The notes below the pieces were generated by a model that saw only the letters and a program-made list of their open reading frames with translations, was not told where the DNA came from and did no database searches. This document shows, in pieces, positions 5,592 through 64,000 of a DNA stretch of 64,000 nucleotides (position 1 is its first letter; every line of letters starts with the position of its first letter). The DNA comes from Candidatus Omnitrophota bacterium (GTDB taxonomy: Bacteria > Omnitrophota > Gorgyraeia > Gygaellales > Profunditerraquicolaceae), in assembly GCA_043823435.1 (NCBI GenBank), contig JBDRAV010000014.1, positions 10,765-74,764 on the forward strand, read 5' to 3'. Both the position numbers and the translations under genes were made by a program.

Positions 5592-7937
5592 TTAAATCGT
5601 TGCCCTTGTCAATCCTTTCCGAAAAATTACTAAAAGCAGTAGGCTGCTTAATTTCATGAATATGATTACCATACAGGTATTAAATAGGCCCAGTACCGGT
5701 AAAAGCAAGACACCCCCCACAATGCCTGCGAGCCACCCTCCCATCAGGTCAGAGAAATAAAATAATCCCGAAGTAAGCCCTACGCCGCGATTCTCTTTAA
5801 GATATACTCCGGTAGCGAGCGGGAACTCCAGGCCGATGAATACCCCTGAGACAAAGAATAGCGCGATAAATATGGGCGCGATATATCTCGCTTCGGCGGC
5901 CAGGCCCGTGATCACGGCCGAAGCCAAATATGAAAATATGATCATCGCTATTTCTAATTTGATCAGCAGGTTTATGCTGTTCTTTATATTTCTTAGGCTG
6001 CGCGTCATAAAGAGGCTCCCCACGGCAGTCCCTGCCATGAAGATACTGATGAGGATACCTATCTTATGGTACAGGTAGCCGTAGACCACCTGAAAACTGA
6101 ATATCAGCACAAGGTTAATCATCATGCCGAAGAAACCGGTAGTAGCCACGGCATAAGGAACGCTTAATTTAGCTAAATTGCGCTTACAAGATAAAAACAT
6201 TATCAGGGCAAAAGTCAATACGAGAACTAATACCAATGGAACGACCAAATCAAGGTTCTTCATGGCTCCCAGGACCCCGGCAAAACCCGAAGAGAACTGC
6301 TTATTCCAAATGATGAGCATCTCGTAAACCGCAAAAGGCATAAAGTCGCGGTTCATCTTAGTGGTAGCGCCAAGTGAAGAGCGGTTGAACCATTCCAGGT
6401 GGCTCTTGTTCAACCTGTATTCCAGGTATGCAGGAACGAGTATGCCTGGTTTGATATTCTCACCGCGCATCCTCTGCGTGAGCAATCCGGGGGTAACACT
6501 CATAATCCCCGCTGAGTCAGATGCCAGGAAGATATTATAATCACCCGGGATGACGCGCACATAATTATATGCGCTCTTAAGGCCGTTTAATACGCACGCG
6601 TTTAAATCGCGCAGATCGCAGCTTAAATAAGTCATTGAACCCGGCAGGTAAAGCGCAAGGACGCCGGCCGGATTCATCCTTCCTTTAGCCAAGTCAAAGA
6701 ACTCTTCGGTAAATAGACGGTTACTGGAGAGGTCAGAAGGTTTGGATAGGCCGACCATCATAACGTCATATCTATTCTGCGTACGCTTAAGAAAGAATCT
6801 CCCGTCTTTATTTATTACGTTTACCCTCTTATCGCCAAGTTCCCTCGCGGTCAAGCTGGAAGGGTACTCTTGCAGCATCCTGATAATCAAAGGGTCAAGT
6901 TCCGCGTAATCGAGCCTTTTGACGGGATATTTGAGCATCTCATTTATTAGGCCGCCTGCACCTGCGCCGATAATTAAAACATCCTTTGGCGCGGGATGGA
7001 ATAATAAAGGAAGGTTACCGAACTCCTGCACAAAGACCATATCCGGATAAGGCGTAGTGATCACGGGCAGGCCGTTGTAGAAGAATGTGCGCTCCCCCTC
7101 CTTCTGGACCACGGCGATATTCCCATAAATAGAATTGCGGTAATCAAGGACCTCTTCACCCTTCCATTGTTTTTGGATGGCGTAAGCGCTTATCTTGGAC
7201 GCAGCGCCACTTAAAAACAGGTATGCCGCAAGCAGGAGCACAAAGAATACAAGATATCTGAATACCGTAGATATACGCCTGTAAAAAGGCAGGCATACAA
7301 AGATAATCAATGCGGATATAATGAATGCTATCTGAAAAGAATCCAGGCGCGGTATCAAAAGATAAGTAAGGAGCACTCCGCCTGCGATCGTGCCGATAGT
7401 CTCCCAGGCATAGATCCTTCCTACGCAGTCCGCGGAATCTTTTGCATATGAGGAATATATCTTACAGGAAGCACTGAATAGTGCGCCGTGGCAGAACGCT
7501 ACCGGCAACATTATGAATAAAGAAGAATAGAATATCAATGACAGGGACATCCCCTCTACAAAAGGCACCCCTGCTATAGATTTGACGCACCTGGCCAGGT
7601 AAACGGATAAAGGAAGCACCAAGGCGAATATCACCTGCAGGATAATAAAAATATTTATTTTATTTTTTACCCTGTCAATAACCCTGCCGATGATAAAGAC
7701 TCCGGCGGCCTCTGACATAATCCAGTTGGCAAGGATCAACCCTAGCGAGAGTTCGTTGCCGTAAAAACTCACCAGTAGCTCGCGCAGCAGCACTACCTGC
7801 GCCACTATACCGCTTAAGCCTACCAACAGAACCGTAAAAACAAGAAGAGACTGTCCATGCAAGGTAAAAACAAAAAGGGACTGTCCCCGAAGGGGACTGT
7901 CCCTTTTTATAACGCTCCTCATCCTAAAAAACATCAT
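5592..7937 (-). CDS. fused MFS-like membrane domain / spermidine-synthase-like (class-I Rossmann) protein
   Basis: About 8 N-terminal TM helices, then VLIIGAGAGGLINEMLKYPVKRLDYAELDP (aminopropyltransferase/MTase fold), then further TM helices. Start is uncertain because the first ~25 codons overlap a hairpin/terminator repeat. An in-frame TTG at 7862 is an alternative start. Confidence 0.7.
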   Translation of the reverse strand: MMFFRMRSVIKRDSPLRGQSLFVFTLHGQSLLVFTVLLVGLSGIVAQVVLLRELLVSFYGNELSLGLILANWIMSEAAGVFIIGRVIDRVKNKINIFIILQVIFALVLPLSVYLARCVKSIAGVPFVEGMSLSLIFYSSLFIMLPVAFCHGALFSASCKIYSSYAKDSADCVGRIYAWETIGTIAGGVLLTYLLIPRLDSFQIAFIISALIIFVCLPFYRRISTVFRYLVFFVLLLAAYLFLSGAASKISAYAIQKQWKGEEVLDYRNSIYGNIAVVQKEGERTFFYNGLPVITTPYPDMVFVQEFGNLPLLFHPAPKDVLIIGAGAGGLINEMLKYPVKRLDYAELDPLIIRMLQEYPSSLTARELGDKRVNVINKDGRFFLKRTQNRYDVMMVGLSKPSDLSSNRLFTEEFFDLAKGRMNPAGVLALYLPGSMTYLSCDLRDLNACVLNGLKSAYNYVRVIPGDYNIFLASDSAGIMSVTPGLLTQRMRGENIKPGILVPAYLEYRLNKSHLEWFNRSSLGATTKMNRDFMPFAVYEMLIIWNKQFSSGFAGVLGAMKNLDLVVPLVLVLVLTFALIMFLSCKRNLAKLSVPYAVATTGFFGMMINLVLIFSFQVVYGYLYHKIGILISIFMAGTAVGSLFMTRSLRNIKNSINLLIKLEIAMIIFSYLASAVITGLAAEARYIAPIFIALFFVSGVFIGLEFPLATGVYLKENRGVGLTSGLFYFSDLMGGWLAGIVGGVLLLPVLGLFNTCMVIIFMKLSSLLLLVIFRKGLTRATI
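7834..7886. repeat. 23-bp direct repeat (2 mismatches, 30-bp period) containing the GGACAGTC core
   Basis: gtaaaaacaagaagagactgtcc (7834-7856) versus gtaaaaacaaaaagggactgtcc (7864-7886). Confidence 0.7.
7863..7908 (-). terminator. candidate intrinsic terminator downstream of the Wzy_C gene
   Basis: The minus-strand RNA would be AAAAAGGGACAGUCCCC-UUC-GGGGACAGUCCCUUUUUGUUUUUACC. That is a 17-nt stem with one central mismatch, a 3-nt loop and a U-rich tail. It begins 26 nt after the stop codon at 7934-7936. Confidence 0.5.
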
Positions 7938-9178
7938 TTAGGCGTAACTACTTCTGACTTGATATTGCTCATCGCTGAAACACCCAGGCCGAGCAATATC
8001 CAAAATAAGAGCCCGAGGTCCAGGGAATAGAATATCGTATCCACCCCCATCTGCACACAATAACCCAGCAATGCGGCAAGGCTCGCCAGCAATATATACC
8101 AAGAGAAACTCCTGTTGTTCTTACTGATTATTCTGATACCGCTGTAAAAAAAGAGAGCCGGTATAACTAAAAACGATACCAGGCCTACTGCCCCCATCTC
8201 CGCAAGCATCTGCAGGTAACAATTATGGGCATAGGATGGCCCATATTGGTAAGCCTCTGGCACAAAATCCTTAAAGTTAAACATGAACGTCCCCAGACCC
8301 AGCCCTATCCATGGTCTTACGATAAACATCTTCCACCCTGCCTCCCAGAATATCTTTCTCTCCACGCTTCCGGGGTCTTTGAAGCAAGAGACGTCAAATC
8401 CGACAAAGAAATTGTTTAACCGTTCCTTTATTAGTGCAGGATAAAACGGATGGGTAACCGTTATAAAAAACGCAAGCAGCAAAAAGAATAGACCAAGATG
8501 ATATATCCATAACCCCAAAAATAACGCGGATGCCGCAAATCCATACCACGCCCCCCTTGAAACCGTCATCATCAGGCAGGTAAAAAGAAGAAAAAAAAGC
8601 CCCCCTAACAGTAACCTACCAGTCCTGGAGCGCAATTTAGTAACAAGAAAGGTCACTAAGAATGGCATTACGGCTATAAGATAACAGCCAAAATCATTAG
8701 GCGTAAGGAATGATGCGTAAATGCGCTTGACGAATATGGCTGGGCGGTGACGCAGGAAATCCTTGTGCGTAAAATACTGGTATATTCCGTCTATTCCGAC
8801 TACAGCCGAAGAAAAAAACATGATATAAAGAAAATTCCGGATCTTCTTTTCGCTGTTAAGCGCGTCTATCAGGACGAAAAAGAATAATACATTCTGCACT
8901 ATCTTGCCGTAAAATGTCCTAGCGCTGATCCCGTAATTAACGCTTGTAAAAACCGAGACGAAACATATGCCTAAATAAACAAGTATCGCGGAATTAAGGT
9001 ATGACCTCGGGAGACTTTCTTTGCGCAGGAACATTTTTAACACGTAACATACGATGGCCAAGGTACTGCATATTTCGATAGCGGCCTTGGAAATTGGAAA
9101 AAGAAGCGCCATGCTGTAAAGCGAGAATATAATTATCCTGTCTAAGGTATTAATTAATCTCGTCTTGTCCCAAACCAT
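7934..9178 (-). CDS. O-antigen ligase/polymerase family (Wzy_C domain) polytopic membrane protein
   Basis: 414 aa with at least 10 TM helices. It carries the characteristic loop MMTVSRGAWYGFAASALFLGL. The SD-like GAAGAGGA lies 8 nt before the ATG at 9178. Confidence 0.7.
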   Translation of the reverse strand: MVWDKTRLINTLDRIIIFSLYSMALLFPISKAAIEICSTLAIVCYVLKMFLRKESLPRSYLNSAILVYLGICFVSVFTSVNYGISARTFYGKIVQNVLFFFVLIDALNSEKKIRNFLYIMFFSSAVVGIDGIYQYFTHKDFLRHRPAIFVKRIYASFLTPNDFGCYLIAVMPFLVTFLVTKLRSRTGRLLLGGLFFLLFTCLMMTVSRGAWYGFAASALFLGLWIYHLGLFFLLLAFFITVTHPFYPALIKERLNNFFVGFDVSCFKDPGSVERKIFWEAGWKMFIVRPWIGLGLGTFMFNFKDFVPEAYQYGPSYAHNCYLQMLAEMGAVGLVSFLVIPALFFYSGIRIISKNNRSFSWYILLASLAALLGYCVQMGVDTIFYSLDLGLLFWILLGLGVSAMSNIKSEVVTPK

Positions 9179-10988
9179 CTATTATATCCTCTTCGTCCAA
9201 AATGCCCTTTATTTTTCTGTAAGAGACGCCACAATCGCGGCATATCCTAGTGATATCGTGAAATATCTGCATGCTAATAGAAGGAACTGCGATGATCACC
9301 TCTTCTATATTATGCTCGCGAACAAGCTCCCTGATCGAATCCCTCGCGCCGAGAACAGGTATGCCCTGTATCTTATAGCCTGTCTTTGAAGGGTTATCAT
9401 CTATGAAACCGACCAGATTGTAGTTAAGCGTCTTGTTTCTCTTTATCTCCCTTACCGCCAGTTCACCAGCATCCCCTGCCCCAAATATCAATATGTTCTT
9501 CCCCTCTTTGCGCACGCGGCTGAACAGTTCGCCCAGCACCCTGAACAATATCCTTGAGCCGGCAACGAGAAAAAGCAGAAGAAGCCAGTCTATGAAAAAG
9601 ACCACCCTCGAAAAGCCCTTGAACCTGAATAAGAAGGTGAAGATTATCACGGAAAAAGCAGAAGCCAGAGTAACCGCCTTGAATACGGTGATCAGGTCCG
9701 ATACGCTTATATATTTCCATACCCCGCGGTAAAGCCCCAGCATATAAAAAACTGATATTTTTATCAAGATGAGCCATACGATGGACCTCTCCGCCAACTG
9801 CAGGTTAACCGCTAATATCGGGCTTTCAAAACGCAAGAAATAAGCCGAGTAATACGCAACGCAGATAAACACCAAGTCAAACAAAACCTCCATTATCCTG
9901 CGTTTATATAATAACATATTGTTCAGGATGGTCTTGCTGTTCCTTAACTCCTGCCATTTCTTATAGTCTATAAGTTCATTGTTATAGGAGACCGAATCGG
10001 ATAGAAAAAACCCGAAAAATAACAATATTACGATGGCTAGGAACGCGATGACCGAGATGACAAAGAGGTCTATTCGGGAATACGAAAGCGCGATAATTCC
10101 GAAAGCTATGCTTATGACATAGAGGAGGAATACGGTCTTGCGCGGCGACAACCCCAGGGCTATAAGCCGGTGCGAAGTATGGTCGGTGCCTCCTTCAAAG
10201 ATCTTTTTACCGCTAAGCCTCCTCATGATCATTACGAATATAGTATCGAAGATGGGGACACTCAGGATAAATACGGGGATAAGGATAGTAGCAAAGAGGT
10301 TGGATATATGGCGTCCCGTACCGCTTATTGAGATAACGGCAAGGGAATACCCCAAGAACATACTCCCTGAATCGCCCATAAAGATCTTGGCGGGGTTTAA
10401 ATTATAGGGCAGGAACCCTAATGCGGCTGCGGCCAAAACCAGGCTGAATACCCCAAGCAGATTATTATTGGCGAAAATCAGTGATGAGAAGAATATCATC
10501 AGAGAAGATATGGCGGCGATGCCTGCCGCCAAGCCGTCGATATTGTCGAGGAGATTGAAGGAGTTCGTCACCCCCACTATCCATATCAAAGTCAGTGGTA
10601 TGGTTATACTGTTGCTGACCGGCAGCCCGATTATGGCTCCGAAAGATACGGCGATACAAGCAGCAATGATCTGCAGGAACAATTTAGTGTAAGGCTTGAT
10701 ATGCTTTTTATCATCGATAAGGCCGACGAGGAACAGAAAGGTTGCGCCGAAAAAGAGACCTAGAGTGCTTTTGTTTACGCTACCAATTAAGAAAGCGGAG
10801 ATTATAGAAGCCAAGTATATGCTTATGCCGCCAAGGACTGCAGTAGGGTGCTTATGCCAGCGGTCGGCGCGTGGATATGATACTAGCCCCCTTTTTACCG
10901 CGAACAGCCGCACGGCAGGGGTAAAAATAAGGCTTAAGGTAAAAGATATCAGAAAAATAACTAGATTGTGTATGGTTTGATTTTCCAT
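9150..10988 (-). CDS. polyprenyl-phosphate N-acetylhexosamine-1-phosphate transferase (WecA/MraY family) fused to a WbaP/CapD-type N-terminal membrane + Rossmann module
   Basis: aa 1-~330 carry the PNPT motifs FNLLDNIDGLAAG, FMGDSGSMFLGY and DHTSHRL. aa ~370-612 have 4 TM helices, YRGVWKYISVSDL and ILIFGAGDAGELAVREI..LVGFIDDNP..IQGIPVLG. No dehydratase or PHPT catalytic domain follows. Confidence 0.8.
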   Translation of the reverse strand: MENQTIHNLVIFLISFTLSLIFTPAVRLFAVKRGLVSYPRADRWHKHPTAVLGGISIYLASIISAFLIGSVNKSTLGLFFGATFLFLVGLIDDKKHIKPYTKLFLQIIAACIAVSFGAIIGLPVSNSITIPLTLIWIVGVTNSFNLLDNIDGLAAGIAAISSLMIFFSSLIFANNNLLGVFSLVLAAAALGFLPYNLNPAKIFMGDSGSMFLGYSLAVISISGTGRHISNLFATILIPVFILSVPIFDTIFVMIMRRLSGKKIFEGGTDHTSHRLIALGLSPRKTVFLLYVISIAFGIIALSYSRIDLFVISVIAFLAIVILLFFGFFLSDSVSYNNELIDYKKWQELRNSKTILNNMLLYKRRIMEVLFDLVFICVAYYSAYFLRFESPILAVNLQLAERSIVWLILIKISVFYMLGLYRGVWKYISVSDLITVFKAVTLASAFSVIIFTFLFRFKGFSRVVFFIDWLLLLFLVAGSRILFRVLGELFSRVRKEGKNILIFGAGDAGELAVREIKRNKTLNYNLVGFIDDNPSKTGYKIQGIPVLGARDSIRELVREHNIEEVIIAVPSISMQIFHDITRICRDCGVSYRKIKGILDEEDIIDGLGQDEIN

Positions 10989-11058
10989 AACTTAATATTA
11001 TAGCACAAAGCTTAAATTTTCTATTATAGTTTTTTCGCCGGATGACTTGTGCGGTTTC

Positions 11059-12258
11059 TTATGGAAGGTTGAGGATGCGGGTGTATAGATCTTCGATATC
11101 CCGGATCAATCTTTCTTTACTAAATCCATCTTTCACAAAATCCCTTGCAGCTTCCCCCATGCTTTTACGCAACGCACTATCCCGCGCTACAAACCCCAGC
11201 GCAGCGGCAAAGGCCTTGGCATCATCAGGCCTGACCATTATTCCCCTTTCCATGATACTGAACCCATAAGAGATACCTTCTTCCCTGCCCGTATCCTGCC
11301 CTAGTAGGTCCCTTACTCCTCCGACATCAGTGGCTACTACGGCTCTTGCCGAAGCCATCGCCTCTATCAATGATACCGGCGTCCCCTCATTCCTAGAGGT
11401 AAGTGCGACTATATCCAGGTCAGAATAGATAACGGGAAGGTCCCTCTGCCATCCTGCCAGCTCCACGTATTTGTCGATACCCAGTTTTCGCGCGCGTTCT
11501 TCCAAATCCCCCCTTAACTCCCCATCACCAATAATCTTGAACCTTGCTCTGATATCCTTGTTGACGGCCATAAATCCGGAGACGGCCTCAAGGAATAACC
11601 GGTGGTTCTTAATCGGCACAATCCTGCCTACGATGCCGACATTCAAGCCAATGTTATCCTTAGGTGGTATCTTTAAGAATCTGTCCAACTCAAAGCCTAA
11701 AGGGATAACCTCTATCTTCCCCTCACCGGCAATGCCAAGTTCCATAAGCTCTTCCCTTACTGAGTCGCTCACGGTTATGATCTTATGGGTGAAACGCGCC
11801 AACAACTTCTCAACAAAGATAAAGATTCTGGTCTGGATCTTATTAAAATATCCTCCAAAGACATGCCCATGAAAGGTGTGTATAATGATAACGCGCTTAC
11901 GCGAAAAACGCCGGAGATTGTAGAATATGGCGGCAAGCCTCCCTAAAGTTCCCGCTTTGGCTGTGTGCGTATGGATTATATCGGGTTCCTGTGAGCGAAT
12001 GATCTTATATATCTTTATGAACGCGGTTATGTCGTTAAAAAGATTAAGTTTGCGCGTAAGTTCCGGGATAAAAACTGGTTTTACCTCCTTGTCGAGCGCG
12101 TAATAAGACATATCCCCTTCATCTTTGGCGACTCTTCCGCAGACGAGGAGTGATTGGAACCCGGATCTGTTCAGTCCTTCGGTAAGAAGGACCGTATGTA
12201 TCGCCGGGCCTCCAATATTGAGGCGGGCGATAACCCTTAATATTTTTATCTTTTTCAT
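11059..12258 (-). CDS. glycosyltransferase, GT-B fold (GT4-like)
   Basis: N-terminus KILRVIARLNIGGPAIH and C-terminal E-x7-E block SRNEGTPVSLIEAMASARAVVATDVGG. Confidence 0.85.
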   Translation of the reverse strand: MKKIKILRVIARLNIGGPAIHTVLLTEGLNRSGFQSLLVCGRVAKDEGDMSYYALDKEVKPVFIPELTRKLNLFNDITAFIKIYKIIRSQEPDIIHTHTAKAGTLGRLAAIFYNLRRFSRKRVIIIHTFHGHVFGGYFNKIQTRIFIFVEKLLARFTHKIITVSDSVREELMELGIAGEGKIEVIPLGFELDRFLKIPPKDNIGLNVGIVGRIVPIKNHRLFLEAVSGFMAVNKDIRARFKIIGDGELRGDLEERARKLGIDKYVELAGWQRDLPVIYSDLDIVALTSRNEGTPVSLIEAMASARAVVATDVGGVRDLLGQDTGREEGISYGFSIMERGIMVRPDDAKAFAAALGFVARDSALRKSMGEAARDFVKDGFSKERLIRDIEDLYTRILNLP

Positions 12259-12295
12259 TTGATAAGGGAAAAATGGTAAGGCCTTACGGGAAGTT

Positions 12296-13264: not shown

Positions 13265-13299
13265 CTAATCTTCCTTTCTTAGAAATTTATCCTATTGTA

Positions 13300-14265: not shown

Positions 14266-14284
14266 AAACTTCTTCCTGTTAATG

Positions 14285-15711: not shown

Positions 15712-15744
15712 GGCATTACCTCCCGCTATTATCCTGTATGGATT

Positions 15745-17619: not shown

Positions 17620-17623
17620 CTTT

Positions 17624-20117: not shown

Positions 20118-20124
20118 TTTGATA

Positions 20125-38431: not shown

Positions 38432-38433
38432 CC

Positions 38434-40991: not shown

Positions 40992-41006
40992 CCTGTATCC
41001 TCTCTT

Positions 41007-46746: not shown

Positions 46747-46755
46747 TATAAATTA

Positions 46756-48207: not shown

Positions 48208-48212
48208 AAAGT

Positions 48213-49895: not shown

Positions 49896-49902
49896 GGCTT
49901 CT

Positions 49903-52148: not shown

Positions 52149-52209
52149 AATCGCACCTCTTGTCTTAGGACGGTTTATTTTTCCGGTTTAAAGCGCTTGC
52201 ATAATTTAC

Positions 52210-56619: not shown

Positions 56620-57532
56620 TATTCTTCAGTACGATCCTTATCTGCTCTCCCATAAGCATCCGCTCATCAATAACGGAGAATACGGACCTATACAGGAATT
56701 TCAAGGGCTTCTTAAGGGCCCCTATCTTATCCTTGAAATTAACGCTCCCCTTTACCATACGCCCGCAGATATGCCCGCTCACAGGATTCACATAATTGCT
56801 GAAATGACGGTACGTAGAGAGGCTGGCTACCTTAAAACCGTGATTATCCGCCAAATGCCTCACCGAGACAGGCGAAAAAATATAAAGATGGTAGGGGAAG
56901 GAAAGCTGGTGCCACCTGGCGCCGAATATCCTGGATTCAACACAACGATAGTTCGGAATCTTTATGATCATTATCCCGTCCGGCTTCAACGACTCTTTGG
57001 CCGTCTTTAATATGCGCACGGGATCAGGCAAATGTTCTAAGACCATAAACATCACTATCGCGTCAAAATATCCTTTAGGTAATTTAGCGTCTTCAAGGCG
57101 TGAATTCATCACCTTAAGGCCTAACCGCTTGGAGGCGAATGAAGAAGCGAACTCCGAGACCTCTATACCCGTTACTTCCCATCCCAGGCGTTCGGCAGCC
57201 TTCAAGAAGAAACCCGAGGCGCATCCGACCTCAAGGAGCTTCCCTCCTTTTTTAAAAGGGTGTATCTCATACCTGACGCTTTCTTCGGCAAGGCGTATCC
57301 TTGACTCAACCGCAGCGTCATCCAGGCCTTTCAAATACTGGATATTATGATTGCGGAAATATTCCTCCGAGTAGAATTCCTCTATCGTGCGGCTATCGGG
57401 TACGGGTTCAAGGAAGATAACACCGCAGCCTCCGCATTTATACATCTTATGCGGCTCTTTAAAGCTGAAGGCCACCCTGTCCGTAAGGGCGCTACATATC
57501 CCGCATCTCTTCAACTTATGGTTATCTTTCAT
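56612..57532 (-). CDS. class I SAM-dependent methyltransferase with N-terminal Cys4 zinc ribbon
   Basis: CGICSAL..(17)..CGGCGVIF, LLEVGCASGFF and FDAIVMFMVLEHL. Same architecture as 13300..14265. Confidence 0.75.
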   Translation of the reverse strand: MKDNHKLKRCGICSALTDRVAFSFKEPHKMYKCGGCGVIFLEPVPDSRTIEEFYSEEYFRNHNIQYLKGLDDAAVESRIRLAEESVRYEIHPFKKGGKLLEVGCASGFFLKAAERLGWEVTGIEVSEFASSFASKRLGLKVMNSRLEDAKLPKGYFDAIVMFMVLEHLPDPVRILKTAKESLKPDGIMIIKIPNYRCVESRIFGARWHQLSFPYHLYIFSPVSVRHLADNHGFKVASLSTYRHFSNYVNPVSGHICGRMVKGSVNFKDKIGALKKPLKFLYRSVFSVIDERMLMGEQIRIVLKNNG

Positions 57533-57538
57533 ATCTTT

Positions 57539-58051
57539 CTAATCCTTATTCTTTAATCTCTCTTTTATCACCCTTGCCGGCACTCCTGTGGCTACGGTAT
57601 AAGGGGGTATATCCGTCGTTACCACGCTTCCTGCCCCTATCACCGCGCCTTCGCCAATGACCACGCCGGGAAGGAGCGTGACATTCGCGCCCAGCCAGGC
57701 ATTCTTACCTATGGAAACCGGCGCGGTCTTATGGGCATTATAGGAGGCCCTGCCTACTTTTTCGTAATCATGGTTTACCGTGATTATAGAAACATTGGTC
57801 GCGATCATTGTGGAATCTCCGATAGATACCTTATCGTGCGCCAGGACCGTCAGCCCGGAATTTATGCAGACGTCGCTGCCTATGCTGACATTCTCCGGAT
57901 GAAATACATTAAGAGGGGCGCGGATATATACGTTCTTGCCGAGTTGCATATCTTTTGTAAGATGCCATATTCTCCCTCTCAGCAACGCTTCATAAAAGCC
58001 GTTGCAGAGCGTACCGAAGACGGCTTTAACCGCTTTTTTCAGTCTTTGCAT
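57539..58051 (-). CDS. hexapeptide-repeat (left-handed beta-helix) acetyltransferase
   Basis: IATNVSIITVNHDY..VSIGKNAWLGANVTLLPGVVIGEGAVIGAGSVVTTDIPPYTVATGVPARVI. Confidence 0.8.
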   Translation of the reverse strand: MQRLKKAVKAVFGTLCNGFYEALLRGRIWHLTKDMQLGKNVYIRAPLNVFHPENVSIGSDVCINSGLTVLAHDKVSIGDSTMIATNVSIITVNHDYEKVGRASYNAHKTAPVSIGKNAWLGANVTLLPGVVIGEGAVIGAGSVVTTDIPPYTVATGVPARVIKERLKNKD

Positions 58052-59027
58052 CTTTCCTGCCTTTTTTAGATTTTAACTCCAGATAATCGCTATCCGACCA
58101 GATCAAATTGCAGCTCTTGCATAATGAAGGTAACTCCCCCAACTTCTTCTCAGCCATCAGGCGGCGCATCCTCTGCATAGCCTCCCCATTCCAGATATCC
58201 ATAAGGCTCTGAGAAACTGCATCGCCGACTTGCAGCTCTCCATTGGAATCGATACAACAGGCGAATGCCTTCCCGTCCCATCCTATCGCAAAACGGCTCC
58301 ACAACTGCCTGCAGGGCTGATAAAATTTCCCTTCCGGATACTTGAACCCGGAATCAACCAGATGGCCCCCAAACGAAAGGAACCATATCGCGTTAAACCT
58401 GTCTACCGGCAACCCAGAAAAAAGCCTCTTGAAATCTTCGCTTACGACAGGCTTCTCCTGGCGGCTGTCATAATCCTTTATCACCTGGACCTGCACATAC
58501 GGTGCCTTCCTACTCAGGGTAAGCTTCTCCTTCAGAAAGGAACGTATGCGCTCCAGCACATCATTGTAATCGGCTTTCTGCCTCATCTCCTCGTATTTCT
58601 CTTTGGTCTCACCGTCAAAGCTAAAAGAGATACTGTCCAAGCCGGAAAAGATGATCTCTTTATTCAGCTTTTTGTCAAGGAGCGTGCCGTTCGTGTGCAG
58701 CCTCACGTTAAGCCCGGCTTTCTTGGCGATCTTTATCATCTCTGGTATCCTGGGATGGAGAAACGACTCCCCTCCCATAAAAAGATTGACCCTCCTCAGT
58801 TCAAGGCCCCTTATATCTTTGATTATCTTTTTATATAGCTCCATATCCATATACCCCTTGGGCCTCTTTAAACCCTTTGACTGAGGGCACATCAGGCAGC
58901 GCAAATTACAATTATTCGTCGGCTCTATGAAGAGTTCGCTCGGCGGATATCCCAGAAAGCACACACCCCCCGTCCAGCTCTTTAAATACCTCCGTTGATA
59001 AAGTTTTGATCTTAGGTATCTAAACAT
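58026..59027 (-). CDS. radical SAM / SPASM(Twitch)-domain protein
   Basis: Cluster motif NNCNLRCLMC. Auxiliary-cluster region CRQLWSRFAIGWDGKAFACC ... LCKSC. Confidence 0.8.
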   Translation of the reverse strand: MFRYLRSKLYQRRYLKSWTGGVCFLGYPPSELFIEPTNNCNLRCLMCPQSKGLKRPKGYMDMELYKKIIKDIRGLELRRVNLFMGGESFLHPRIPEMIKIAKKAGLNVRLHTNGTLLDKKLNKEIIFSGLDSISFSFDGETKEKYEEMRQKADYNDVLERIRSFLKEKLTLSRKAPYVQVQVIKDYDSRQEKPVVSEDFKRLFSGLPVDRFNAIWFLSFGGHLVDSGFKYPEGKFYQPCRQLWSRFAIGWDGKAFACCIDSNGELQVGDAVSQSLMDIWNGEAMQRMRRLMAEKKLGELPSLCKSCNLIWSDSDYLELKSKKGRKDAKTEKSG

Positions 59028-59029
59028 CT

Positions 59030-60598
59030 CTAACTTTCCGAAAATACAGGTGCCTGCACTTTTTCTCTTTTGAATTTAGAGAGGATTATATCCTTCACCT
59101 CTCCTACTTCCTCTATCTTCAGATAATACATCGCCACAAGATACAGGCTCACGCATAAAACGCAGCTTACCGATAAAAATGCCAGGTGCGCCAGAACGCC
59201 CCGCAGCAGCGGCCGCAAAGATGAATTGAGGTAATAAAGCAGGAGCCCCGAGGATAAAGCCGTTACGAATATCTTGCAGGGGGCGTAAAAGATCTCTTTT
59301 ATGGAAAGCTTCTTGATCCTAAGATACAGGAAGATATAGTTGATGGAGAACGCTATCATATAATAGACCGCGAAGGCTATGGCGATACCCTGTAACCTTA
59401 GGGTTCTTGAAAGGAATGAGCAATAGAATGAATACGCGATTATCTCGAATATCCCTACAGGTATAAGGACCCTCGTATCCTGGGTAATCACGTATATCTG
59501 GCTCGGCAAGGTAGACAGCGCCATAAAAAATAGCGCTATCAGGTAATATACGAAGACTGAAGCGGTATTTATCGTATCCTGCTGCGTGAATTGGCCCCTT
59601 TCGTACAGGAGGCGTATCACGTCAAATTTCAGGATGATAAGATATATCACCATAGGGCTGACCATGATCATCAAGCTGTTTATCCCTTTGAGGTAAGTCC
59701 TCTTGACGTTCTCCCAGTCGTTCGTGCTGGCAAACTTGGATAATAACGGGAAGAATGCCGTTGAGATACCGTTCGTCGTAAGCGCAAGAAGTATCGGGAT
59801 AATGCGGTAGGCGTAACCGAGGTAAGATATGGTTCCGGTAGATATGCCGGAGGCAAAATTCTTTTCGATCAGGGTCGCGGATTTATAGAAGACCGCGCCT
59901 ATTATCACCGGCACTATCAGCCTCGTCAGCTTCCTTAATTCACTATCCCCTATCCTAATCAGGAAGCGGTACTTCCCTGAGAGGACCGGCAAAAGGAATA
60001 TAGACTGTATGGCCGCCCCCAGCAGGAGCCCGTAAGCTACGCTATATATCCCCAGTGCCTTAGCTGATAAGAATACCGTCATGCAGACCGTAGCGCTGTT
60101 TAAAAGAAGCGCGATCGAAGGCTTAAGGAAACGGTTATCGGCATAATAGAGACTAGTAAAGAGCGTACTTAATCCGTTAAAGAATATGGCGAGGAACAAT
60201 ATCCGGCTCAATCCGACTGCCAGCTCATAAGAAACCGGGGGCAACCCCGGAGCGAGCCATTTTATATATAAACGTATCAAAAAGAGGCTGGTAACGACCA
60301 ATAAGGCGAGGAATACAGAAAGGGTATTTACGAAATTAGACGCGAACTCCCACGCGCGAGCCTCACCGCCCTTGACCTTGGAATCAATGAAGAGAGGTAT
60401 GAATACCCTAGATATGCTGGCGCTCAATATGAGGATAGCGAATGTAGGTATGGTAAATGCGACAAAATAGGAATCCATCTCTATCCCCACCCCGAAACGG
60501 CTGGCGAGTATGATCTGGACCGCCATATTTATAAGGAGTGAAAGGAAGTAAAATACGGTTATGATGAACACGGATTTGACGACTCTCGTCTTTGTCAT
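59030..60598 (-). CDS. MurJ/MviN-family (MOP superfamily) lipid-linked glycan flippase #3
   Basis: 522 aa with about 14 TM helices. The N-terminus INMAVQIILASRFGVGIEMDSYFVAFTIPTF matches the MurJ pattern (..G.....DaF..AF.IPn). Confidence 0.75.
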   Translation of the reverse strand: MTKTRVVKSVFIITVFYFLSLLINMAVQIILASRFGVGIEMDSYFVAFTIPTFAILILSASISRVFIPLFIDSKVKGGEARAWEFASNFVNTLSVFLALLVVTSLFLIRLYIKWLAPGLPPVSYELAVGLSRILFLAIFFNGLSTLFTSLYYADNRFLKPSIALLLNSATVCMTVFLSAKALGIYSVAYGLLLGAAIQSIFLLPVLSGKYRFLIRIGDSELRKLTRLIVPVIIGAVFYKSATLIEKNFASGISTGTISYLGYAYRIIPILLALTTNGISTAFFPLLSKFASTNDWENVKRTYLKGINSLMIMVSPMVIYLIILKFDVIRLLYERGQFTQQDTINTASVFVYYLIALFFMALSTLPSQIYVITQDTRVLIPVGIFEIIAYSFYCSFLSRTLRLQGIAIAFAVYYMIAFSINYIFLYLRIKKLSIKEIFYAPCKIFVTALSSGLLLYYLNSSLRPLLRGVLAHLAFLSVSCVLCVSLYLVAMYYLKIEEVGEVKDIILSKFKREKVQAPVFSES

Positions 60599-61336
60599 CT
60601 ACTTTATCTCCTCTATCACCTTTGCCGGTACCCCCGCGGCTATGGAATAAGCGGGCACATCTTTATTCACTACTGCTCCTGCCGCTACTACGCTATGCTC
60701 TCCTATCTTTACCCCTCCCAGGATAACGCTATTCGCCCCCAGCCAGCAATCCTTACCTATGCTGATCGGTTCCTGTTCATAGGACTGCTCCATTATCAAT
60801 TTACCTGATTCAAATTTGTGGTTGCCGGTTGCAATAGTGACATTGGGCCCGATAAGGGTATTATCCCCTATTTCCACTCTTGCATCTCCTGCGGCGATGA
60901 CGCAATTTATCCCTACCCAACAGCTCTCCCCTATATAAATACCTTCATTCTCTTTGAGGTGGCCTGAGAAGGCGCAAACGTAACTTGCGAACATTATCCG
61001 GGTGTTCCTGCCGATACGTATACCGGCAGGCGATGAATGTATCCGGCAATTCCTGTCGATAAAGACGTTCCTCCCGCACCATAAACGGTTGAAATACTTG
61101 ATATCCACGTTCTGCTCGCTGAAGAAGGCTGCCGAGCCTGCCGGTAGGAGCGGCTTATAGAGGATCGCGCGTATAACCATCCCGGCGGGCGTCGGGATCC
61201 ATCCGGCCAGGGCGGTTACCAGCTGTTCGACGATGAAACGGAGTGCCCCTGAGGCGTTGGAGCGAACATAGAGCCCGATAAGGTTCCCGCGAGAATCATT
61301 CTTCAGGAAATCTTTGGTATTCATCTCTTTATCCAT
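60599..61336 (-). CDS. hexapeptide-repeat (left-handed beta-helix) acetyltransferase
   Basis: IGPNVTIATGNHKF..ISIGKDCWLGANSVILGGVKIGEHSVVAAGAVVNKDVPAYSIAAGVPAKVI. Confidence 0.8.
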   Translation of the reverse strand: MDKEMNTKDFLKNDSRGNLIGLYVRSNASGALRFIVEQLVTALAGWIPTPAGMVIRAILYKPLLPAGSAAFFSEQNVDIKYFNRLWCGRNVFIDRNCRIHSSPAGIRIGRNTRIMFASYVCAFSGHLKENEGIYIGESCWVGINCVIAAGDARVEIGDNTLIGPNVTIATGNHKFESGKLIMEQSYEQEPISIGKDCWLGANSVILGGVKIGEHSVVAAGAVVNKDVPAYSIAAGVPAKVIEEIK

Positions 61337-61339
61337 AGC

Positions 61340-62410
61340 TCACCAGTAATACTTTTTATGTTTCTTATAATATGCTATGGTCTTCCTGACCCCCTCCTCA
61401 AGCTCCGTCTTCGGCTCCCAACCGACGATCTTTTTAATCTTGGATATATCGGAATAAAAATCTCCCGGCTCCTGCGCCTTGCGTTCCGCGGAGAAAGGAG
61501 CGAACTCCCACTTCCCTCCCCCGGCGACACCAATTATGGACTCGACCAGCTCTATGAAATTGGTCGGCTTGTCGATACCCACGTTGAATATCTCTCCGTA
61601 TGCATCAGGCACTGCCGCGGACATAATGATCGCGTCCACGCAGTCTTCCACATAGAGAAAATCCCTGAGTATTTTCCCGTCTCCGAATATCTTTACCGTC
61701 TCCCCTGCCATGACTTGGCGGATGAACCAGTTTGCCACGCCGAAACGGTGGTGTTTCATCTGGGCGCGCGGTCCGTAAATATTCGTAAGGCGCAACATCA
61801 CCGATCTTATGCCGTGGATATCGTTGTAAACCTTAATGATCTGCTCGGCGGCAAGGTTCGATATTTCATAGATACCCTTTGGCTTGGTAGGCGCTTCTTC
61901 GTTCACCGGAAGATGCACGCTCGATCCGTATTGCCCGCGGGTCCCGGTATATAACACTCTTACGCCGGGATTATTCCTTTTGCATGCCTCCATAAGGACC
62001 GCGGCTCCCTTTATATTGATATCTATATCCGGGAACGGATTTGTCAGGCTCATTACGTGGCAAACCTGGCCTGCCAAATGAAAGATATAGTCCTTATCCT
62101 TTACCAAGTAATTCATCGTATTGTGATTACGTATATCCCCGAAATTAACGGTAACCGTATCCTCGACAGGTTTTATATTGAAGAGGTTCCCTCCGTAATC
62201 GGGTATCATCGCATCAAGGAGGGCTACGTTCGCCCCCATGGAAACGAGCCTGAGCGCAAGATTACTGCCTATGAATCCCAGCCCTCCGGTAATAAGTACG
62301 TTCTTATTTTCAAAAGCCTCCCTGCAATTAAGGAGCCTTTCTTTCTCAGCTAAACTACACCCTATTCTTCTTTTCAACCTATCCCCTCTCGATGGTCCTA
62401 ACAACTTCAT
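61340..62410 (-). CDS. NAD-dependent sugar-nucleotide epimerase/dehydratase (extended SDR)
   Basis: VLITGGLGFIGSNL and YEISNLAAE (YxxxA/K region). The start could instead be the TTG at 62377, preceded by GAGAGGGGA. Confidence 0.85.
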   Translation of the reverse strand: MKLLGPSRGDRLKRRIGCSLAEKERLLNCREAFENKNVLITGGLGFIGSNLALRLVSMGANVALLDAMIPDYGGNLFNIKPVEDTVTVNFGDIRNHNTMNYLVKDKDYIFHLAGQVCHVMSLTNPFPDIDINIKGAAVLMEACKRNNPGVRVLYTGTRGQYGSSVHLPVNEEAPTKPKGIYEISNLAAEQIIKVYNDIHGIRSVMLRLTNIYGPRAQMKHHRFGVANWFIRQVMAGETVKIFGDGKILRDFLYVEDCVDAIIMSAAVPDAYGEIFNVGIDKPTNFIELVESIIGVAGGGKWEFAPFSAERKAQEPGDFYSDISKIKKIVGWEPKTELEEGVRKTIAYYKKHKKYYW

Positions 62411-64000
62411 TTAAATCATAGATATCTATCGTTTGATCGGACTCCAGGATGCTCTTCTGTTGTGATTCTTTGTTATCATATAAAAAGTTAAAAGTTGAGT
62501 GCTTTTCGGAAAATAGCGGCTTTAATTTCGTAGAAGCCCTTAAAATCTCATTTGGATAATTGAAGCGGTATTGATCCAGAAGTAAATAGTGAACATCATT
62601 AGCCACGGCAAAATCCTTCAGCTTTTTGATATCTATGTGAGTCTTTCCTGATGGGTCAATATCTTTATCGCGATAAGAAAAACTCATATCAAACGCTTGA
62701 TCTCTATCAACATAAACGCGGGAGATCAGGTAATTCGAACTCAAATGCTTAACCCCTTTATTATTGTGCATAAAATCTATTGCGTCTTTAAAGCCACTGG
62801 AGGAGCGCAAAATCGGCAGAGAACTCGAAAGTTGAACCGCTAAAACAGCCGTAGTTAAGAATATGCCCGGCAATAAGTTCCTTTTTGAGAAAATAATACT
62901 TAAAGGATAAGCTGCTATTATACACATAGCCGGTATGGCGATATAAAATGTCCGCGTAGTAGGAAAATGCGAATAGAGCCCGAGGCTGACATAAGTTATA
63001 AGGAAGTAAGAGGTAAGAATCAAAATATTTACATTTGCGCCCGGCTTCCTTATGGTTCGCCATAGCATAATGTCCAAACCTGTTACAAAAGCCAGCAAGA
63101 AAGGCAATCCTTCCTTTAGAAAAATTATCCTTGGATAAAACCACAGATTTCCTTGATAACCGGTCTGCCGGTTTGATGCCGACACCTGCGAATAAAGCTG
63201 CTCAAAATAGCTGACAAATCCACCCTCGCCCGACATCCCTTTTGATAGCCTTAAATAATCGGGGTGTAAATCAATCCATGACTTTATAATAAACGTTACT
63301 GCCTGCCAGAATAATATAGGGAGCAATAAACCGAATGACCATATCAAAAAACGCCCGAAAGGACTCTCTTTATTGATTGCGCCGCGCACGAAATTAATAA
63401 GTTCCAGCATCCCGAATAAGAATATCAGCCAATAGAAGTAATAATGTGTCGTAACCGCAAGCCCTATAGAAACGCCGTACAAAAAGATAATCATATTTTT
63501 TTTGCGGTTTGTATTTCCTGAGTCTTGAGCCATTAAATATAAAAGAAATGCAAGGTATGCAAAAAAAGTTCCGGTGACATGCGGAAACGCGGAACGCGAA
63601 TATGTAAGGTGAAACCAGGATACTGCTAATAATAAAACCGAGATCACGCCCAATCCGGTATCCTTCAGCCTGCGGGATATAAAGAAAACCAATATCAAAA
63701 TAAGCACCCCGGCTAAAGCAGAAACAATGGGCAGCGTATAGTCTTTAAGGCCTATCAGCAAAGATGCCAGGAATGCCACGCCTAAATAAGTCGGTTTTCC
63801 TGCCATATAAATAATACCGCCCTTTTGCTGCAGATACTGGACAAAGCTGAGGTTGGCTAATTTATTGTTGAATCTAGAAATTGTAAAGTCTACGGGCACC
63901 CGCATTGTTTTGACGAAATTAAAATAAAGCCCTTCGTCTACCGCAACCATCGCGCTCTTGTTTAAACGATAGAGAGTCAGGAATAAGCTTAAGATTACAA
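62379..64000 (-). CDS. GT-C fold glycosyltransferase, ArnT/PMT (GT39/GT83)-like; 5' end beyond window
   Basis: At least 10 TM helices. The frame stays open upstream of the listed ATG to the window edge (..VILSLFLTLYRLNKSAMVAVDEGLYFNFVKTM), which includes the first-loop D-E pair typical of this family. Confidence 0.7.
   Translation of the reverse strand, partial: VILSLFLTLYRLNKSAMVAVDEGLYFNFVKTMRVPVDFTISRFNNKLANLSFVQYLQQKGGIIYMAGKPTYLGVAFLASLLIGLKDYTLPIVSALAGVLILILVFFISRRLKDTGLGVISVLLLAVSWFHLTYSRSAFPHVTGTFFAYLAFLLYLMAQDSGNTNRKKNMIIFLYGVSIGLAVTTHYYFYWLIFLFGMLELINFVRGAINKESPFGRFLIWSFGLLLPILFWQAVTFIIKSWIDLHPDYLRLSKGMSGEGGFVSYFEQLYSQVSASNRQTGYQGNLWFYPRIIFLKEGLPFLLAFVTGLDIMLWRTIRKPGANVNILILTSYFLITYVSLGLYSHFPTTRTFYIAIPAMCIIAAYPLSIIFSKRNLLPGIFLTTAVLAVQLSSSLPILRSSSGFKDAIDFMHNNKGVKHLSSNYLISRVYVDRDQAFDMSFSYRDKDIDPSGKTHIDIKKLKDFAVANDVHYLLLDQYRFNYPNEILRASTKLKPLFSEKHSTFNFLYDNKESQQKSILESDQTIDIYDLNEVVRTIERG

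Follow-up and report, generated by a model that had tools for sequence, protein, structure and literature searches.

The region described here is a 64,000-nucleotide stretch, referred to below as the window, of an 84,229-bp contig (JBDRAV010000014.1) from a metagenome-assembled genome (MAG) of Candidatus Omnitrophota. Forty-seven consecutive genes in it, g53 to g07, probably constitute a chromosomal, vertically inherited, modular Omnitrophota cluster for a cell-surface glycan that would be made by an undecaprenyl-diphosphate (Und-PP), Wzx/Wzy-type route. In architecture, the cluster corresponds to an O-antigen or surface-polysaccharide locus of the Wzx/Wzy type, a broadly ordinary kind of feature, and its size has precedent. 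As judged from gene content and from comparison with relatives, the locus would be a mosaic of six parts. It encodes three flippases of the MOP type, all of which plausibly act on glycans, including the one that is annotated as MurJ (g50), and we favor the view that they would serve at least two distinct Und-PP-linked substrates sharing one initiator.

Fifty-three open reading frames (ORFs) of at least 100 aa tile the window from 283 to 63950, all on the minus strand, and 47 of them (g07-g53) fall in 7934-63950. With the junctions measured from the in-frame start closest to each upstream stop, 40 of the 46 are 19 bp or shorter, 11 are 4-bp overlaps of the ATGA type, and only six exceed 30 bp (33, 35, 37, 61, 70, and 312 bp), the coding fraction of 7934-64000 being 98.8%. 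A preliminary description of this DNA, made from the sequence alone, had noted about 47 co-directional and tightly packed genes from 7.9 kb onward, with many ATGA overlaps, and these counts confirm it. The proteins of g07, g08, g23, g31, g34, g40, g45, and g50 are exactly matched by NCBI entries for the contig (MFH1888949 to MFH1888993, locus tags ABH806_025xx-027xx), the numbering of which implies one additional annotated coding sequence between g34 and g40.

Families were assigned to every ORF with Pfam, and additionally with NCBIfam, and the gene calls of the preliminary description survive almost gene for gene. They comprise one polyprenyl-phosphate HexNAc-1-phosphate transferase (PNPT, g08), one Wzy_C protein (g07), eight GT-B (g09, g14, g20, g26, g29, g33, g44, g46) and two GT2 glycosyltransferases (g38, g43), three MOP flippases (g23, 25239-26738; g34, 39552-40991; g50, 59030-60598), three radical S-adenosylmethionine (SAM) enzymes (g30 and g39, which are B12-binding, and g49, with a SPASM domain), four SGNH proteins (g18, g19, g22, and g15, the last marginally under the Pfam cutoff), and three hexapeptide domains (g25, g48, g51). 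Two more polytopic GT-C/Wzy-like proteins are g53, with PMT/PMT_2 over the cutoff, and g31, with ~11 transmembrane (TM) segments and PMT_2 at an E value of 0.005 only. Eight class-I methyltransferases had been counted, seven of which are clear (g11, g16, g21, g32, g41, g42, g47), while the eighth, g17, gives a weak signal only (E 0.044). No Wza/Wzc/Wzz protein, polysaccharide ABC exporter, or NDP-sugar pyrophosphorylase had been seen, which holds for g07-g53; none of the 53 proteins of the window was assigned to Wza/Wzc/Wzz, polysaccharide ABC exporters, or nucleotidyl-transferases. Genes that had gone unmentioned include an AsnB-type amidotransferase (g24), a PAP2 protein (g36), and members of the alkaline-phosphatase superfamily (g35, g37, g45), as well as two epimerases, an RmlD-like reductase, an FAD amine-oxidase-like protein, a DUF4330 protein (g13), and a DUF218 fusion (g14). 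The six parts and their genes are as follows, in the direction of the coding strand; loci of relatives carry numbers beginning with L.

Part 1, g53-g44: conserved MurJ-like module
g53, 62379-63950, minus: GT-C glycosyltransferase (PMT/PMT_2, ArnT-like), polytopic with at least ~8 TM, opening gene of the module; PF02366 31.5 bits (cutoff 22.7), PF13231 27.7 (cutoff 26.1); 49% ortholog at the same position in L081
g52, 61340-62410, minus: NAD-dependent sugar-nucleotide epimerase/dehydratase; PF01370 162.8 bits; 75% ortholog in L081
g51, 60599-61336, minus: hexapeptide acyltransferase; PF00132 76.4 bits; 62-89% orthologs in L081/L082
g50, 59030-60598, minus: MurJ-family MOP flippase without the R18/R24 cavity arginines (flippase 3); PF03023 208 bits
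g49, 58026-59027, minus: radical SAM/SPASM enzyme; PF04055 and PF13186; no NCBIfam family at its cutoff among the 25 best matches
g48, 57539-58051, minus: hexapeptide acyltransferase, paralog of g51 (44%)
g47, 56612-57532, minus: class-I SAM methyltransferase; PF13489 96.6 bits
g46, 55495-56619, minus: GT-B glycosyltransferase, paralog of g26 (34%)
g45, 53448-55505, minus: polytopic alkaline-phosphatase-superfamily enzyme (EptA/LtaS-like phospho-group transferase); PF00884 152.8 bits; N-terminal TM block
g44, 52210-53451, minus: GT4 glycosyltransferase, closing gene of the module; 52-61% orthologs
Part 2, g43-g40: swapped cassette
g43, 51255-52148, minus: polyprenyl-phosphate glycosyltransferase (GT2 of ArnC/GtrB/DPMS type) with two C-terminal TM; PF00535 98.7 bits; in the genome-specific cassette
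g42, 50483-51268, minus: class-I methyltransferase of the variable cassette; only 27-31% to the methyltransferase of relatives at that position
g41, 49903-50508, minus: class-I methyltransferase of the variable cassette
g40, 48213-49895, minus: 560 aa, family unassigned, not polytopic
Part 3, g39-g35: conserved phospho-enzyme module, with the neighboring pyruvate-kinase/NTP-transferase and ATP-sulfurylase genes deleted here
g39, 46756-48207, minus: B12-binding radical SAM enzyme, closest to HpnJ; PF02310 and PF04055; TIGR03471 283 bits, below cutoff
g38, 45991-46746, minus: GT2 glycosyltransferase (DPMS/ArnC-like); 49% orthologs
g37, 44846-45979, minus: soluble alkaline-phosphatase-superfamily ("sulfatase") protein without CxPxR; 72-81% orthologs
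g36, 42995-44833, minus: PAP2 phosphatase (7 TM), its C-terminal region resembling CehA/McbA metallohydrolases; PF01569 88.4 bits and NCBIfam matches
g35, 41304-43079, minus: type I phosphodiesterase/nucleotide pyrophosphatase family; PF01663 158.4 bits
relic, 41007-41249, minus: last 80 codons of an ATP-sulfurylase gene
Part 4, g34-g25: conserved Wzx2 module
g34, 39552-40991, minus: Wzx-type MOP flippase (flippase 2), head of the module; PF01943 69.3 bits, PF13440 62.4 bits
g33, 38434-39555, minus: GT4 glycosyltransferase
g32, 37517-38482, minus: class-I methyltransferase with a Trm112p-like zinc ribbon
g31, 36142-37527, minus: polytopic (~11 TM), weak GT-C signal, candidate periplasmic transferase or polymerase
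g30, 34698-36158, minus: B12-binding radical SAM enzyme, paralog of g39 (29%)
g29, 33481-34701, minus: GT4 glycosyltransferase
g28, 32589-33470, minus: RmlD-like NDP-4-keto-sugar reductase; PF04321 275 bits
g27, 31298-32611, minus: FAD amine-oxidase-like/UDP-galactopyranose-mutase-like oxidoreductase
g26, 30213-31301, minus: GT4 glycosyltransferase
g25, 28636-30216, minus: sugar 3-dehydrogenase (GFO/IDH/MocA) fused to a hexapeptide N-acetyltransferase (WbpB/WbpD-like); 85% ortholog in L084
Part 5, g24-g15: genome-specific Wzx1 block
g24, 26752-28632, minus: AsnB-type glutamine amidotransferase; PF00733 347.7 bits; TIGR03108 631 bits (cutoff 817)
g23, 25239-26738, minus: Wzx-type MOP flippase (flippase 1), genome-specific; PF01943 59.9 bits
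g22, 24169-25242, minus: SGNH/AlgX-like protein with an N-terminal anchor
g21, 23306-24190, minus: FkbM-family methyltransferase
g20, 22170-23327, minus: GT4 glycosyltransferase
g19, 21152-22177, minus: SGNH protein with an N-terminal anchor
g18, 20125-21180, minus: SGNH protein with an N-terminal anchor
g17, 19473-20117, minus: family unassigned, very weak methyltransferase signal; PF08242 E 0.044
g16, 18649-19569, minus: class-I methyltransferase
g15, 17624-18652, minus: SGNH-like protein with an N-terminal anchor; PF13472 32.2 bits (cutoff 32.9); 35-38% to g19/g22
Part 6, g14-g07: conserved initiator/Wzy_C core adjoining pgk-tpi-secG
g14, 15745-17619, minus: TuaH-like GT-B fused to DUF218 (ElyC/SanA-like), start of the conserved 3′ core; 68% ortholog in L001
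g13, 14848-15711, minus: DUF4330 protein; 59% ortholog in L001
g12, 14285-14848, minus: small membrane protein, no Pfam match; 34% ortholog in L001
g11, 13300-14265, minus: class-I methyltransferase; 74% ortholog in L001
g10, 12296-13264, minus: sugar-nucleotide epimerase/dehydratase; 79% ortholog in L001
g09, 11059-12258, minus: GT4 glycosyltransferase; 59% ortholog in L001
g08, 9150-10988, minus: initiating polyprenyl-phosphate HexNAc-1-phosphate transferase (WecA/MraY superfamily), a fusion; PF00953 124.9 bits, PF13727 72.2 bits
g07, 7934-9178, minus: Wzy_C family (O-antigen ligase or polymerase), final glycan gene before the housekeeping genes; PF04932 75.6 bits

Of the components of a Wzx/Wzy-type route, the initiator (g08) and Wzx-type flippases (g23, g34) are present, with g07 and the unclassified polytopic g31 as candidates for the polymerase. 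The PNPT half of g08 (residues 9-328, i.e., the N-terminal ~330 aa, WecA/MraY-like) matches PF00953 far above the cutoff of 27 bits, although the score against the WecA model TIGR02380 (108 bits) is below the cutoff of that model. Residues 369-594 (the C-terminal ~225 aa) resemble the non-catalytic N-terminal part of WbaP/WcaJ, consisting of TM segments and a CoA_binding_3/Rossmann region, and profile comparison with PDB sequences returned MraY/GPT and 3nkl. This unusual fusion is kept in Omnitrophota relatives (orthologs 73-79% identical), whereas homologs from Clostridia match the PNPT half only. Both g23 and g34 score well above the PF01943 cutoff of 28.2 bits. The profile of g07 matches the WaaL ligase (7tpg, E 2.8e-6), and its orthologs (55-69%) adjoin pgk in L001-L003; ligation, polymerization, and O-oligosaccharyl transfer are all conceivable functions of the protein.

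The steps proposed for the pathway, with regard to both the substrates and the order of reactions, are drawn from family membership and from established knowledge of Wzx/Wzy systems. The WecA-like PNPT g08, located at the conserved 3′ end, would prime undecaprenyl phosphate with HexNAc-1-phosphate, and the ten cytoplasmic glycosyltransferases would extend the lipid-linked oligosaccharides. Unusual sugars would be supplied by the g25 fusion, the g24 amidotransferase (a likely role of which is the amidation of a sugar acid), the epimerases g10 and g52, the reductase g28, and g27, and would be decorated by the methyltransferases, the B12-radical-SAM enzymes, and the hexapeptide acyltransferases. 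The lipid-linked intermediates would then be exported by the three MOP flippases, two of Wzx type and one MurJ-like and without the arginine triad for lipid II. Branching, substitution, and final polymerization or ligation of the glycan would take place outside the membrane: g43, along with g38, could make polyprenyl-phosphate sugars feeding the GT-C enzymes g53 and perhaps g31, g45, which is EptA/LtaS-like, is a candidate for attaching a phospho-alcohol, the four anchored SGNH proteins are candidates for O-acylation or deacylation, and g07, the sole Wzy_C protein, would polymerize or ligate the product.

In a comparison against 185,579 species genomes, the closest homologs of g08 are found in four Candidatus Omnitrophota MAGs (48-79% identity), and large parts of the locus are collinear in relatives. 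On a single 40.7-kb Logan contig (L081 and L083), the orthologs of g53 through g26 follow one another as in the window, all on one strand, the ENA contig L082 carries g51-g39, and L084 (NCBI JAQUPI010000010) is collinear with g39-g25 at 50-85% identity. L001 (JAQUPI010000034), a contig of the same MAG as L084, contains g14-g07, g06, pgk, tpi, and secG at 34-79% identity. Since the phosphoglycerate kinase (PGK) and triosephosphate isomerase (TIM) of L001 are 78% and 75% identical to those of the window, and g25, g30, g37, g26, and g28 are 77-85% identical to their counterparts in L084, the conserved glycan modules diverge no faster than the glycolytic enzymes. In this lineage, the MurJ-like block stays together with the Wzx2 block, g34 having orthologs of 53-72% identity in the same gene context. 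The flippase-centered blocks recognized in the preliminary description thus behave differently: two of them are collinear on one contig, whereas the Wzx1 block is without a counterpart.

The possibility that the blocks became adjacent through an assembly or binning artefact is extremely remote. It is true that the source is a MAG contig, that related MAG assemblies break in this region, with the L001 contig stopping within the ortholog of g14, and that the g24-g15 block lacks a counterpart in relatives. However, independent Logan, ENA, and NCBI assemblies reproduce the order of g53-g25 and g14-secG, and assembly error is therefore excluded for those parts, in which the arrangement is real. The junctions at the ends of the unique block are tight as well (3 bp for g25/g24, 4 bp for g15/g14), g23 and g22 overlap, and the GC skew is monotonic over the whole window. 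Whole-window Rfam, tRNA, and repeat scans were empty, and the window, module borders included, contains no insertion sequence (IS) elements, tRNA genes, or long repeats.

Two of the six parts are swapped with respect to relatives. In place of g41-g43 (two methyltransferases and a GT2), the relatives have a methyltransferase and a GNAT protein; the N-terminal ~320 aa of g40, covering half its length, are only 33% identical to a 304-aa protein of the relatives, of unassigned family. The g40-g43 segment has the lowest G+C content among the soluble-protein genes (0.42-0.44). The relatives carry an additional gene of ~350 aa, weakly deacetylase-like, between g39 and g38. In the second variable part, the flippase g23 (Wzx1) has a best non-self match of 28% identity among 5.8 billion clustered proteins, g15-g23 have no close counterpart in any locus compared, and the 59% homolog of g24 in L092 stands in another order of genes, so the g15-g24 block appears to be specific to this genome. 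Homologs of g25 are widespread (56-72% identity), and in a metagenome scan with g25 that returned 80 loci, L092 alone was partly syntenic, again in another order. A more distant Wzx2 homolog (49%, L086) belongs to a differently organized locus with another Wzx, a phosphoenolpyruvate (PEP) mutase, and a thiamine diphosphate (TPP) decarboxylase, indicating that the modules do recombine at a larger evolutionary distance.

Between g35 and g34, the relatives L083, L084, and L085 have two full-length genes, the first encoding a fusion of a pyruvate-kinase barrel with NTP_transf_3 (~575 aa) and the second a PUA_2/ATP-sulfurylase protein (~390 aa). The corresponding place in the window is occupied by the 312-bp gap (40992-41303), which encodes the final 80-88 residues of an ATP-sulfurylase; tblastn aligns it at 65% identity with residues 301-388 of the L084 gene (E 5e-33), and the relic covers positions 144-211 of 212 of PF01747 (63 bits). 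As the gap holds a truncated copy of a gene that is complete in relatives, it is the scar of a deletion of ~2.6 kb and not a regulatory region. The deletion took the pyruvate-kinase/NTP_transf_3 gene as well as most of the ATP-sulfurylase gene, and the neighboring Phosphodiest, PAP2, and sulfatase-like genes g35-g37 may have been orphaned by it. The gap was also considered as an operon boundary with a promoter or a terminator, which was rejected in view of the truncated gene and of the lack of a terminator-like site in it on the coding strand. The longest-ORF start of g35 probably lies too far upstream, the likelier one being the ATG that overlaps the stop codon of g36 by 4 bp.

The third flippase, g50, bears the NCBI name lipid II flippase MurJ, and MurJ structures account for all of its top PDB matches. 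As in the MurJ lipid II flippases (TIGR01695; PDB 5t77, 6cc4, 7waw), the sequence is a full-length, 14-TM member of the family; it falls within the wider Pfam family PF03023 (208 bits) and aligns to positions 2-504 of the 506 of the NCBIfam MurJ equivalog TIGR01695, with 232.4 bits against a cutoff of 235.55. MurJ needs three arginines in its cavity, R18, R24, and R270 in Escherichia coli, which are presumed to bind lipid II (PMC9973255). In Staphylococcus aureus the triad consists of K22, R176, and K302, with R176 placed at the position of E. coli M171 (bioRxiv 10.64898/2026.06.21.733627). In g50 and six orthologs (54-75% identity), R18 is replaced by leucine and R24 by valine, whereas R270 is kept, and the residue equivalent to M171/R176 is valine, isoleucine, or methionine, so that no compensating arginine is present. 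Additionally, E57 in the diderm G/A-E-G-A motif of TM2 is changed to serine, asparagine, or glycine, and its partner R352 to serine. Neither the cationic triad nor the thin gate of MurJ is thus preserved, and only D39 and R270 remain of the residues examined. Since TM1 of g50 (VFIITVFYFLSLLINMAVQIIL) contains no cationic residue at all, a small shift of the alignment could not rescue the triad.

An exhaustive profile search yielded 23,259 representatives of the MurJ family. Among the 150 nearest to the g50 clade, the R/K-R-R triad is found in only ~20, the first two positions being mostly hydrophobic or polar. One triad-less protein, P0007, is encoded in another co-directional glycan locus, adjoining Wzx, GT2, GT1, and GT9 genes; the triad-bearing P0010 has the classical rpsT/holA/lptE/leuS neighborhood. 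We can assign g50 with moderate confidence to a broad, triad-less, MurJ-like subfamily that would serve glycan loci, and with such an assignment the earlier count of three glycan flippases stands. Among P0050-P0198, the representatives nearest to the g50 clade, most sequences are without arginines at the R18/R24 positions, and a lipid II flippase may therefore not be what lies behind many of the MurJ annotations in databases.

Were g50 instead a housekeeping lipid II flippase that lies by chance in a glycan region, only two glycan flippases would be left. The complete peptidoglycan pathway of Omnitrophota (bioRxiv 10.64898/2026.06.07.730766), by which such a flippase is needed, speaks for this explanation, as do the full-length family match close to the equivalog cutoff, the structural matches and the database name, the retention of D39 and R270, and the equally tight packing of pgk, tpi, and secG on the same strand. 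We nevertheless regard it as very unlikely, since the loss of R18, R24, the TM2 glutamate, and R352 is shared by g50 and its six orthologs without an arginine at the S. aureus position, and since the triad-less relatives are numerous, with one in another glycan locus and a triad-bearing MurJ beside rpsT. The gene order around g50 (epimerase, acyltransferase, g50, radical SAM/SPASM, acyltransferase, methyltransferase, glycosyltransferase) is, moreover, conserved in three independent contigs, placing it in a glycan module and not in a housekeeping context.

With three glycan flippases, the number of products becomes the next question. The favored view, i.e., at least two Und-PP-linked substrates drawing on the single initiator, has a parallel in E. 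coli, where WecA serves both the O-antigen and the enterobacterial common antigen (ECA), while each glycan has its own Wzx. A different arrangement would be one glycan with one oligosaccharide flippase, the other two MOP proteins moving polyprenyl-monophosphate sugars, made by g43 and g38, for side-branching by the GT-C proteins g53 and g31; in other words, two three-component periplasmic glycosylation systems nested within an O-antigen-type locus. The protein g43 suits such a role, being matched over its full length by ArnC, DPMS, and GtrB proteins, C-terminal TM region included (ArnC 9hwj at E 1.4e-15 for residues 6-278, as well as 5mlz and 5ekp), and g38 matches the same proteins more weakly. 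The GT-C assignment is clear for g53 through PMT/PMT_2, but weak for g31; both g31 and its L083 ortholog give weak PMT_2 matches. Flippases of the GtrA or ArnE/F type, which would be small, are absent among the 53 proteins according to Pfam, leaving only those of MOP type, and the presence of a single initiator and a single Wzy_C protein also agrees with one glycan. There is, in addition, a precedent in Haloferax volcanii AglD/AglR/AglS, in which the Wzx-like AglR was proposed to flip DolP-mannose alongside a GT2 and a periplasmic transferase (PMC3871713). On the other hand, g43 is absent from relatives that keep g50 and g53, which means that the trio g43-g50-g53 is not conserved as a unit; every module with a flippase, furthermore, has two or three cytoplasmic GT-B enzymes, which suits the assembly of an oligosaccharide and not of a monosaccharide donor. 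On balance, we consider the one-glycan arrangement rather unlikely and retain two or more Und-PP-linked substrates as the preferred reading.

Several observations weigh against the proposed surface-glycan cluster with three glycan flippases. The window is without Wzz, an outer-membrane export component, or a nucleotide-sugar pyrophosphorylase among its 53 proteins, although Wzz and export genes may be located elsewhere in the genome. There is one recognizable initiator and one Wzy_C protein for three flippases, with which a single glycan fits as well as several. The score of g50 is only 3 bits under the MurJ equivalog cutoff, and NCBI names it MurJ; its alignment with MurJ, at 21-25% identity, could misplace TM1, although no cationic residue lies nearby. 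The four SGNH proteins have no MBOAT or AT3 partner in the window, whereas periplasmic O-acetylation usually needs an MBOAT or acyltransferase-3 partner. Finally, the stretch from g25 to g14 is confirmed by no relative.

The genes of the very large rfb loci of Leptospira are largely co-directional, as they are here. These loci range from 3.8 to 121 kb, with a median of ~99.5 kb in pathogens (PMC4758666), and the earlier statement that the gene density and tailoring load here are well beyond a typical O-antigen or capsule locus is overstated in view of such sizes. They are of the Wzx/Wzy type and lack Wzz, and they have a conserved 3′ block with the initiator and Wzx/Wzy, the upstream part being more variable (PMC4758666); in size, type, absence of Wzz, and the conserved 3′ block carrying the initiator, the two loci are alike. 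The initiator of Leptospira, however, is a phosphoglycosyltransferase of WcaJ/WbaP type, in contrast to the WecA-type PNPT fused to a WbaP-like N-terminal region found here. The Omnitrophota locus, unlike that of Leptospira, has a MurJ-like flippase, two B12-radical-SAM enzymes, and alkaline-phosphatase-superfamily enzymes, contains an RmlD-like gene only and not the rfbABCD rhamnose genes, and is conserved in most modules at the housekeeping level instead of being serovar-variable.

The PNPT initiator, the MOP flippases, the Wzy_C-family enzyme, and the nucleotide-sugar tailoring genes are shared with the enterobacterial O-antigen and ECA systems, but the E. coli pathways are encoded in separate loci of ~10-15 kb with Wzz, whereas three flippases and 47 genes are contiguous here, with no Wzz. 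The three-component glycosylation systems GtrA/GtrB/GtrC, ArnC/ArnEF/ArnT, and AglD/AglR/AglS are resembled in the ArnC/GtrB-type GT2 enzymes with C-terminal TM (g43, g38) and in the GT-C protein g53, perhaps also g31. They differ in that no GtrA/ArnE/F-type flippase is present here, the components are not adjacent, and g43 is not conserved. A hypervariable polysaccharide cassette of ~26 kb has been described in Omnitrophota (bioRxiv 10.64898/2026.05.20.726742). It likewise includes an O-antigen ligase and many glycosyltransferases, and two segments of the present locus, g40-g43 and g15-g24, show replacement of a cassette-like kind. The Wzc/Etk, AlgI/AlgJ, lipopolysaccharide exporter, and heptosyltransferase genes of that cassette, however, are not found in the window, and the present locus is mostly conserved. 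What sets the locus apart from its precedents is therefore the triad-less MurJ-like module, the two B12-radical-SAM enzymes, the alkaline-phosphatase-superfamily/PAP2 cluster, the housekeeping-level conservation, and the recent deletion of putative activation genes. Literature searches returned no description of this locus, nor of MurJ-like flippases in Omnitrophota.

Omnitrophota are uncultured, ultra-small, and probably host-dependent, and their surface chemistry likely matters for attachment and for escape from phages. Judged by its gene content, one lineage would commit more than 56 kb to a surface glycan that bears methyl, acetyl, amide, and phospho-substituents. The greater part of the locus is as conserved as the glycolytic genes, with two cassettes swapped and one putative activation step deleted, which is unlike the usual picture of a hypervariable O-antigen, and it offers concrete targets for glycan chemistry in enrichments. 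The lesson for annotation is that a MurJ-family match near the equivalog cutoff is insufficient to call a lipid II flippase, and the MurJ-like subfamily raises a somewhat more interesting question than the locus itself. We can speculate that the triad-less MurJ-like proteins constitute a large, routinely mis-annotated class exporting non-peptidoglycan lipid-linked glycans, and that the three flippases deliver separately assembled blocks that GT-C and Wzy_C enzymes join outside into one composite, heavily modified glycan, conserved for contact with host or prey; as a whole, this proposal is an unlikely one.

Some of the remaining proteins deserve a closer description. In g45, the formylglycine motif CxPxR is absent, with the Thr-type CHTRTSLPSFM in its place, and the EptA/LtaS matches are weak. 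The radical SAM/SPASM enzyme g49 was considered as an anaerobic sulfatase-maturating enzyme for g45 or g37 and rejected, because neither of the two has CxPxR; no model of such an enzyme is among its 25 best NCBIfam matches listed, none of which is at cutoff. The presence of two B12-binding radical SAM enzymes in one glycan locus (g39, 46756-48207, and g30, 34698-36158), the former also matching P-methyltransferases and diol dehydratases of the AprD4 type, points to a sugar being modified in its carbon skeleton or by C- or P-methylation. The four anchored SGNH proteins of the genome-specific block (g15, g18, g19, and g22, 17624-25242) are paralogs of 26-38% identity. The TuaH-like/DUF218 fusion of g14 is kept in L001, and the ElyC/SanA family has been linked to envelope biogenesis.

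Profile searches with g31 and g40 against PDB sequences gave nothing meaningful, and g40 has no Pfam, NCBIfam, or PDB match. In hhalign comparisons, g31 gave only a 35-column match to g53 and none to g07, and its single-sequence AlphaFold model (pLDDT 52, pTM 0.27) is too poor for a fold search. The L086 locus with the Wzx2 homolog (ENA ERZ24794679 NODE_2141, 12650-17894) combines the PEP mutase with split TPP-enzyme genes and with genes for an aldehyde dehydrogenase and an ATP-grasp enzyme. Phosphonate biosynthesis typically involves such genes, a hint that a related organism decorates its glycans with phosphonate.

With regard to transcription, the run of genes does not begin at 7934, as had been thought, since the same strand and the tight packing go on through g06, pgk, tpi, secG, and an opp-type transporter pair (SBP_bac_5/BPD_transp) down to 283. 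Co-directionality is a property of the whole 64 kb, and it therefore says little about operon limits and is not evidence of a single operon; the "one apparent transcription unit" of the preliminary description is not supported. In a consensus scan, the gaps between the genes of the locus showed no terminator-like hairpin, strong hairpins being located solely in the housekeeping part, in the pgk/tpi (4163-4248) and g02/g01 gaps. In the 70-bp gap before g08 (10989-11058), the same type of scan found an extended -10-like sequence, TGCTATAAT, on the coding strand, ~20 nt ahead of the g08 start, from which the conserved initiator/Wzy_C pair might be transcribed internally. Long polycistronic transcripts, with promoters inside the run, would be plausible.

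In the part of the window that follows the glycan genes, g06 (5592-7937), the start of which overlaps the stop of g07 by 4 bp, encodes a polytopic protein of 781 aa with ~18 TM and a central spermidine-synthase-like domain, scoring above the NCBIfam cutoff for "fused MFS/spermidine synthase". It is found in L001 and L003, but not in L002, where pgk directly follows Wzy_C. The longest-ORF start of g05 (pgk, 4249-5571) is probably too far upstream, with the PGK Pfam match beginning at residue 50 and relatives aligning from residue 37-39. The g02/g01 gap (1261-1365), located between the SBP_bac_5 and permease genes, contains two strong hairpins with similar arms (GGGACACTTCT...) and a predicted energy of -52 kcal/mol for the region, which have a look resembling either repetitive extragenic palindromes or a terminator/attenuator.

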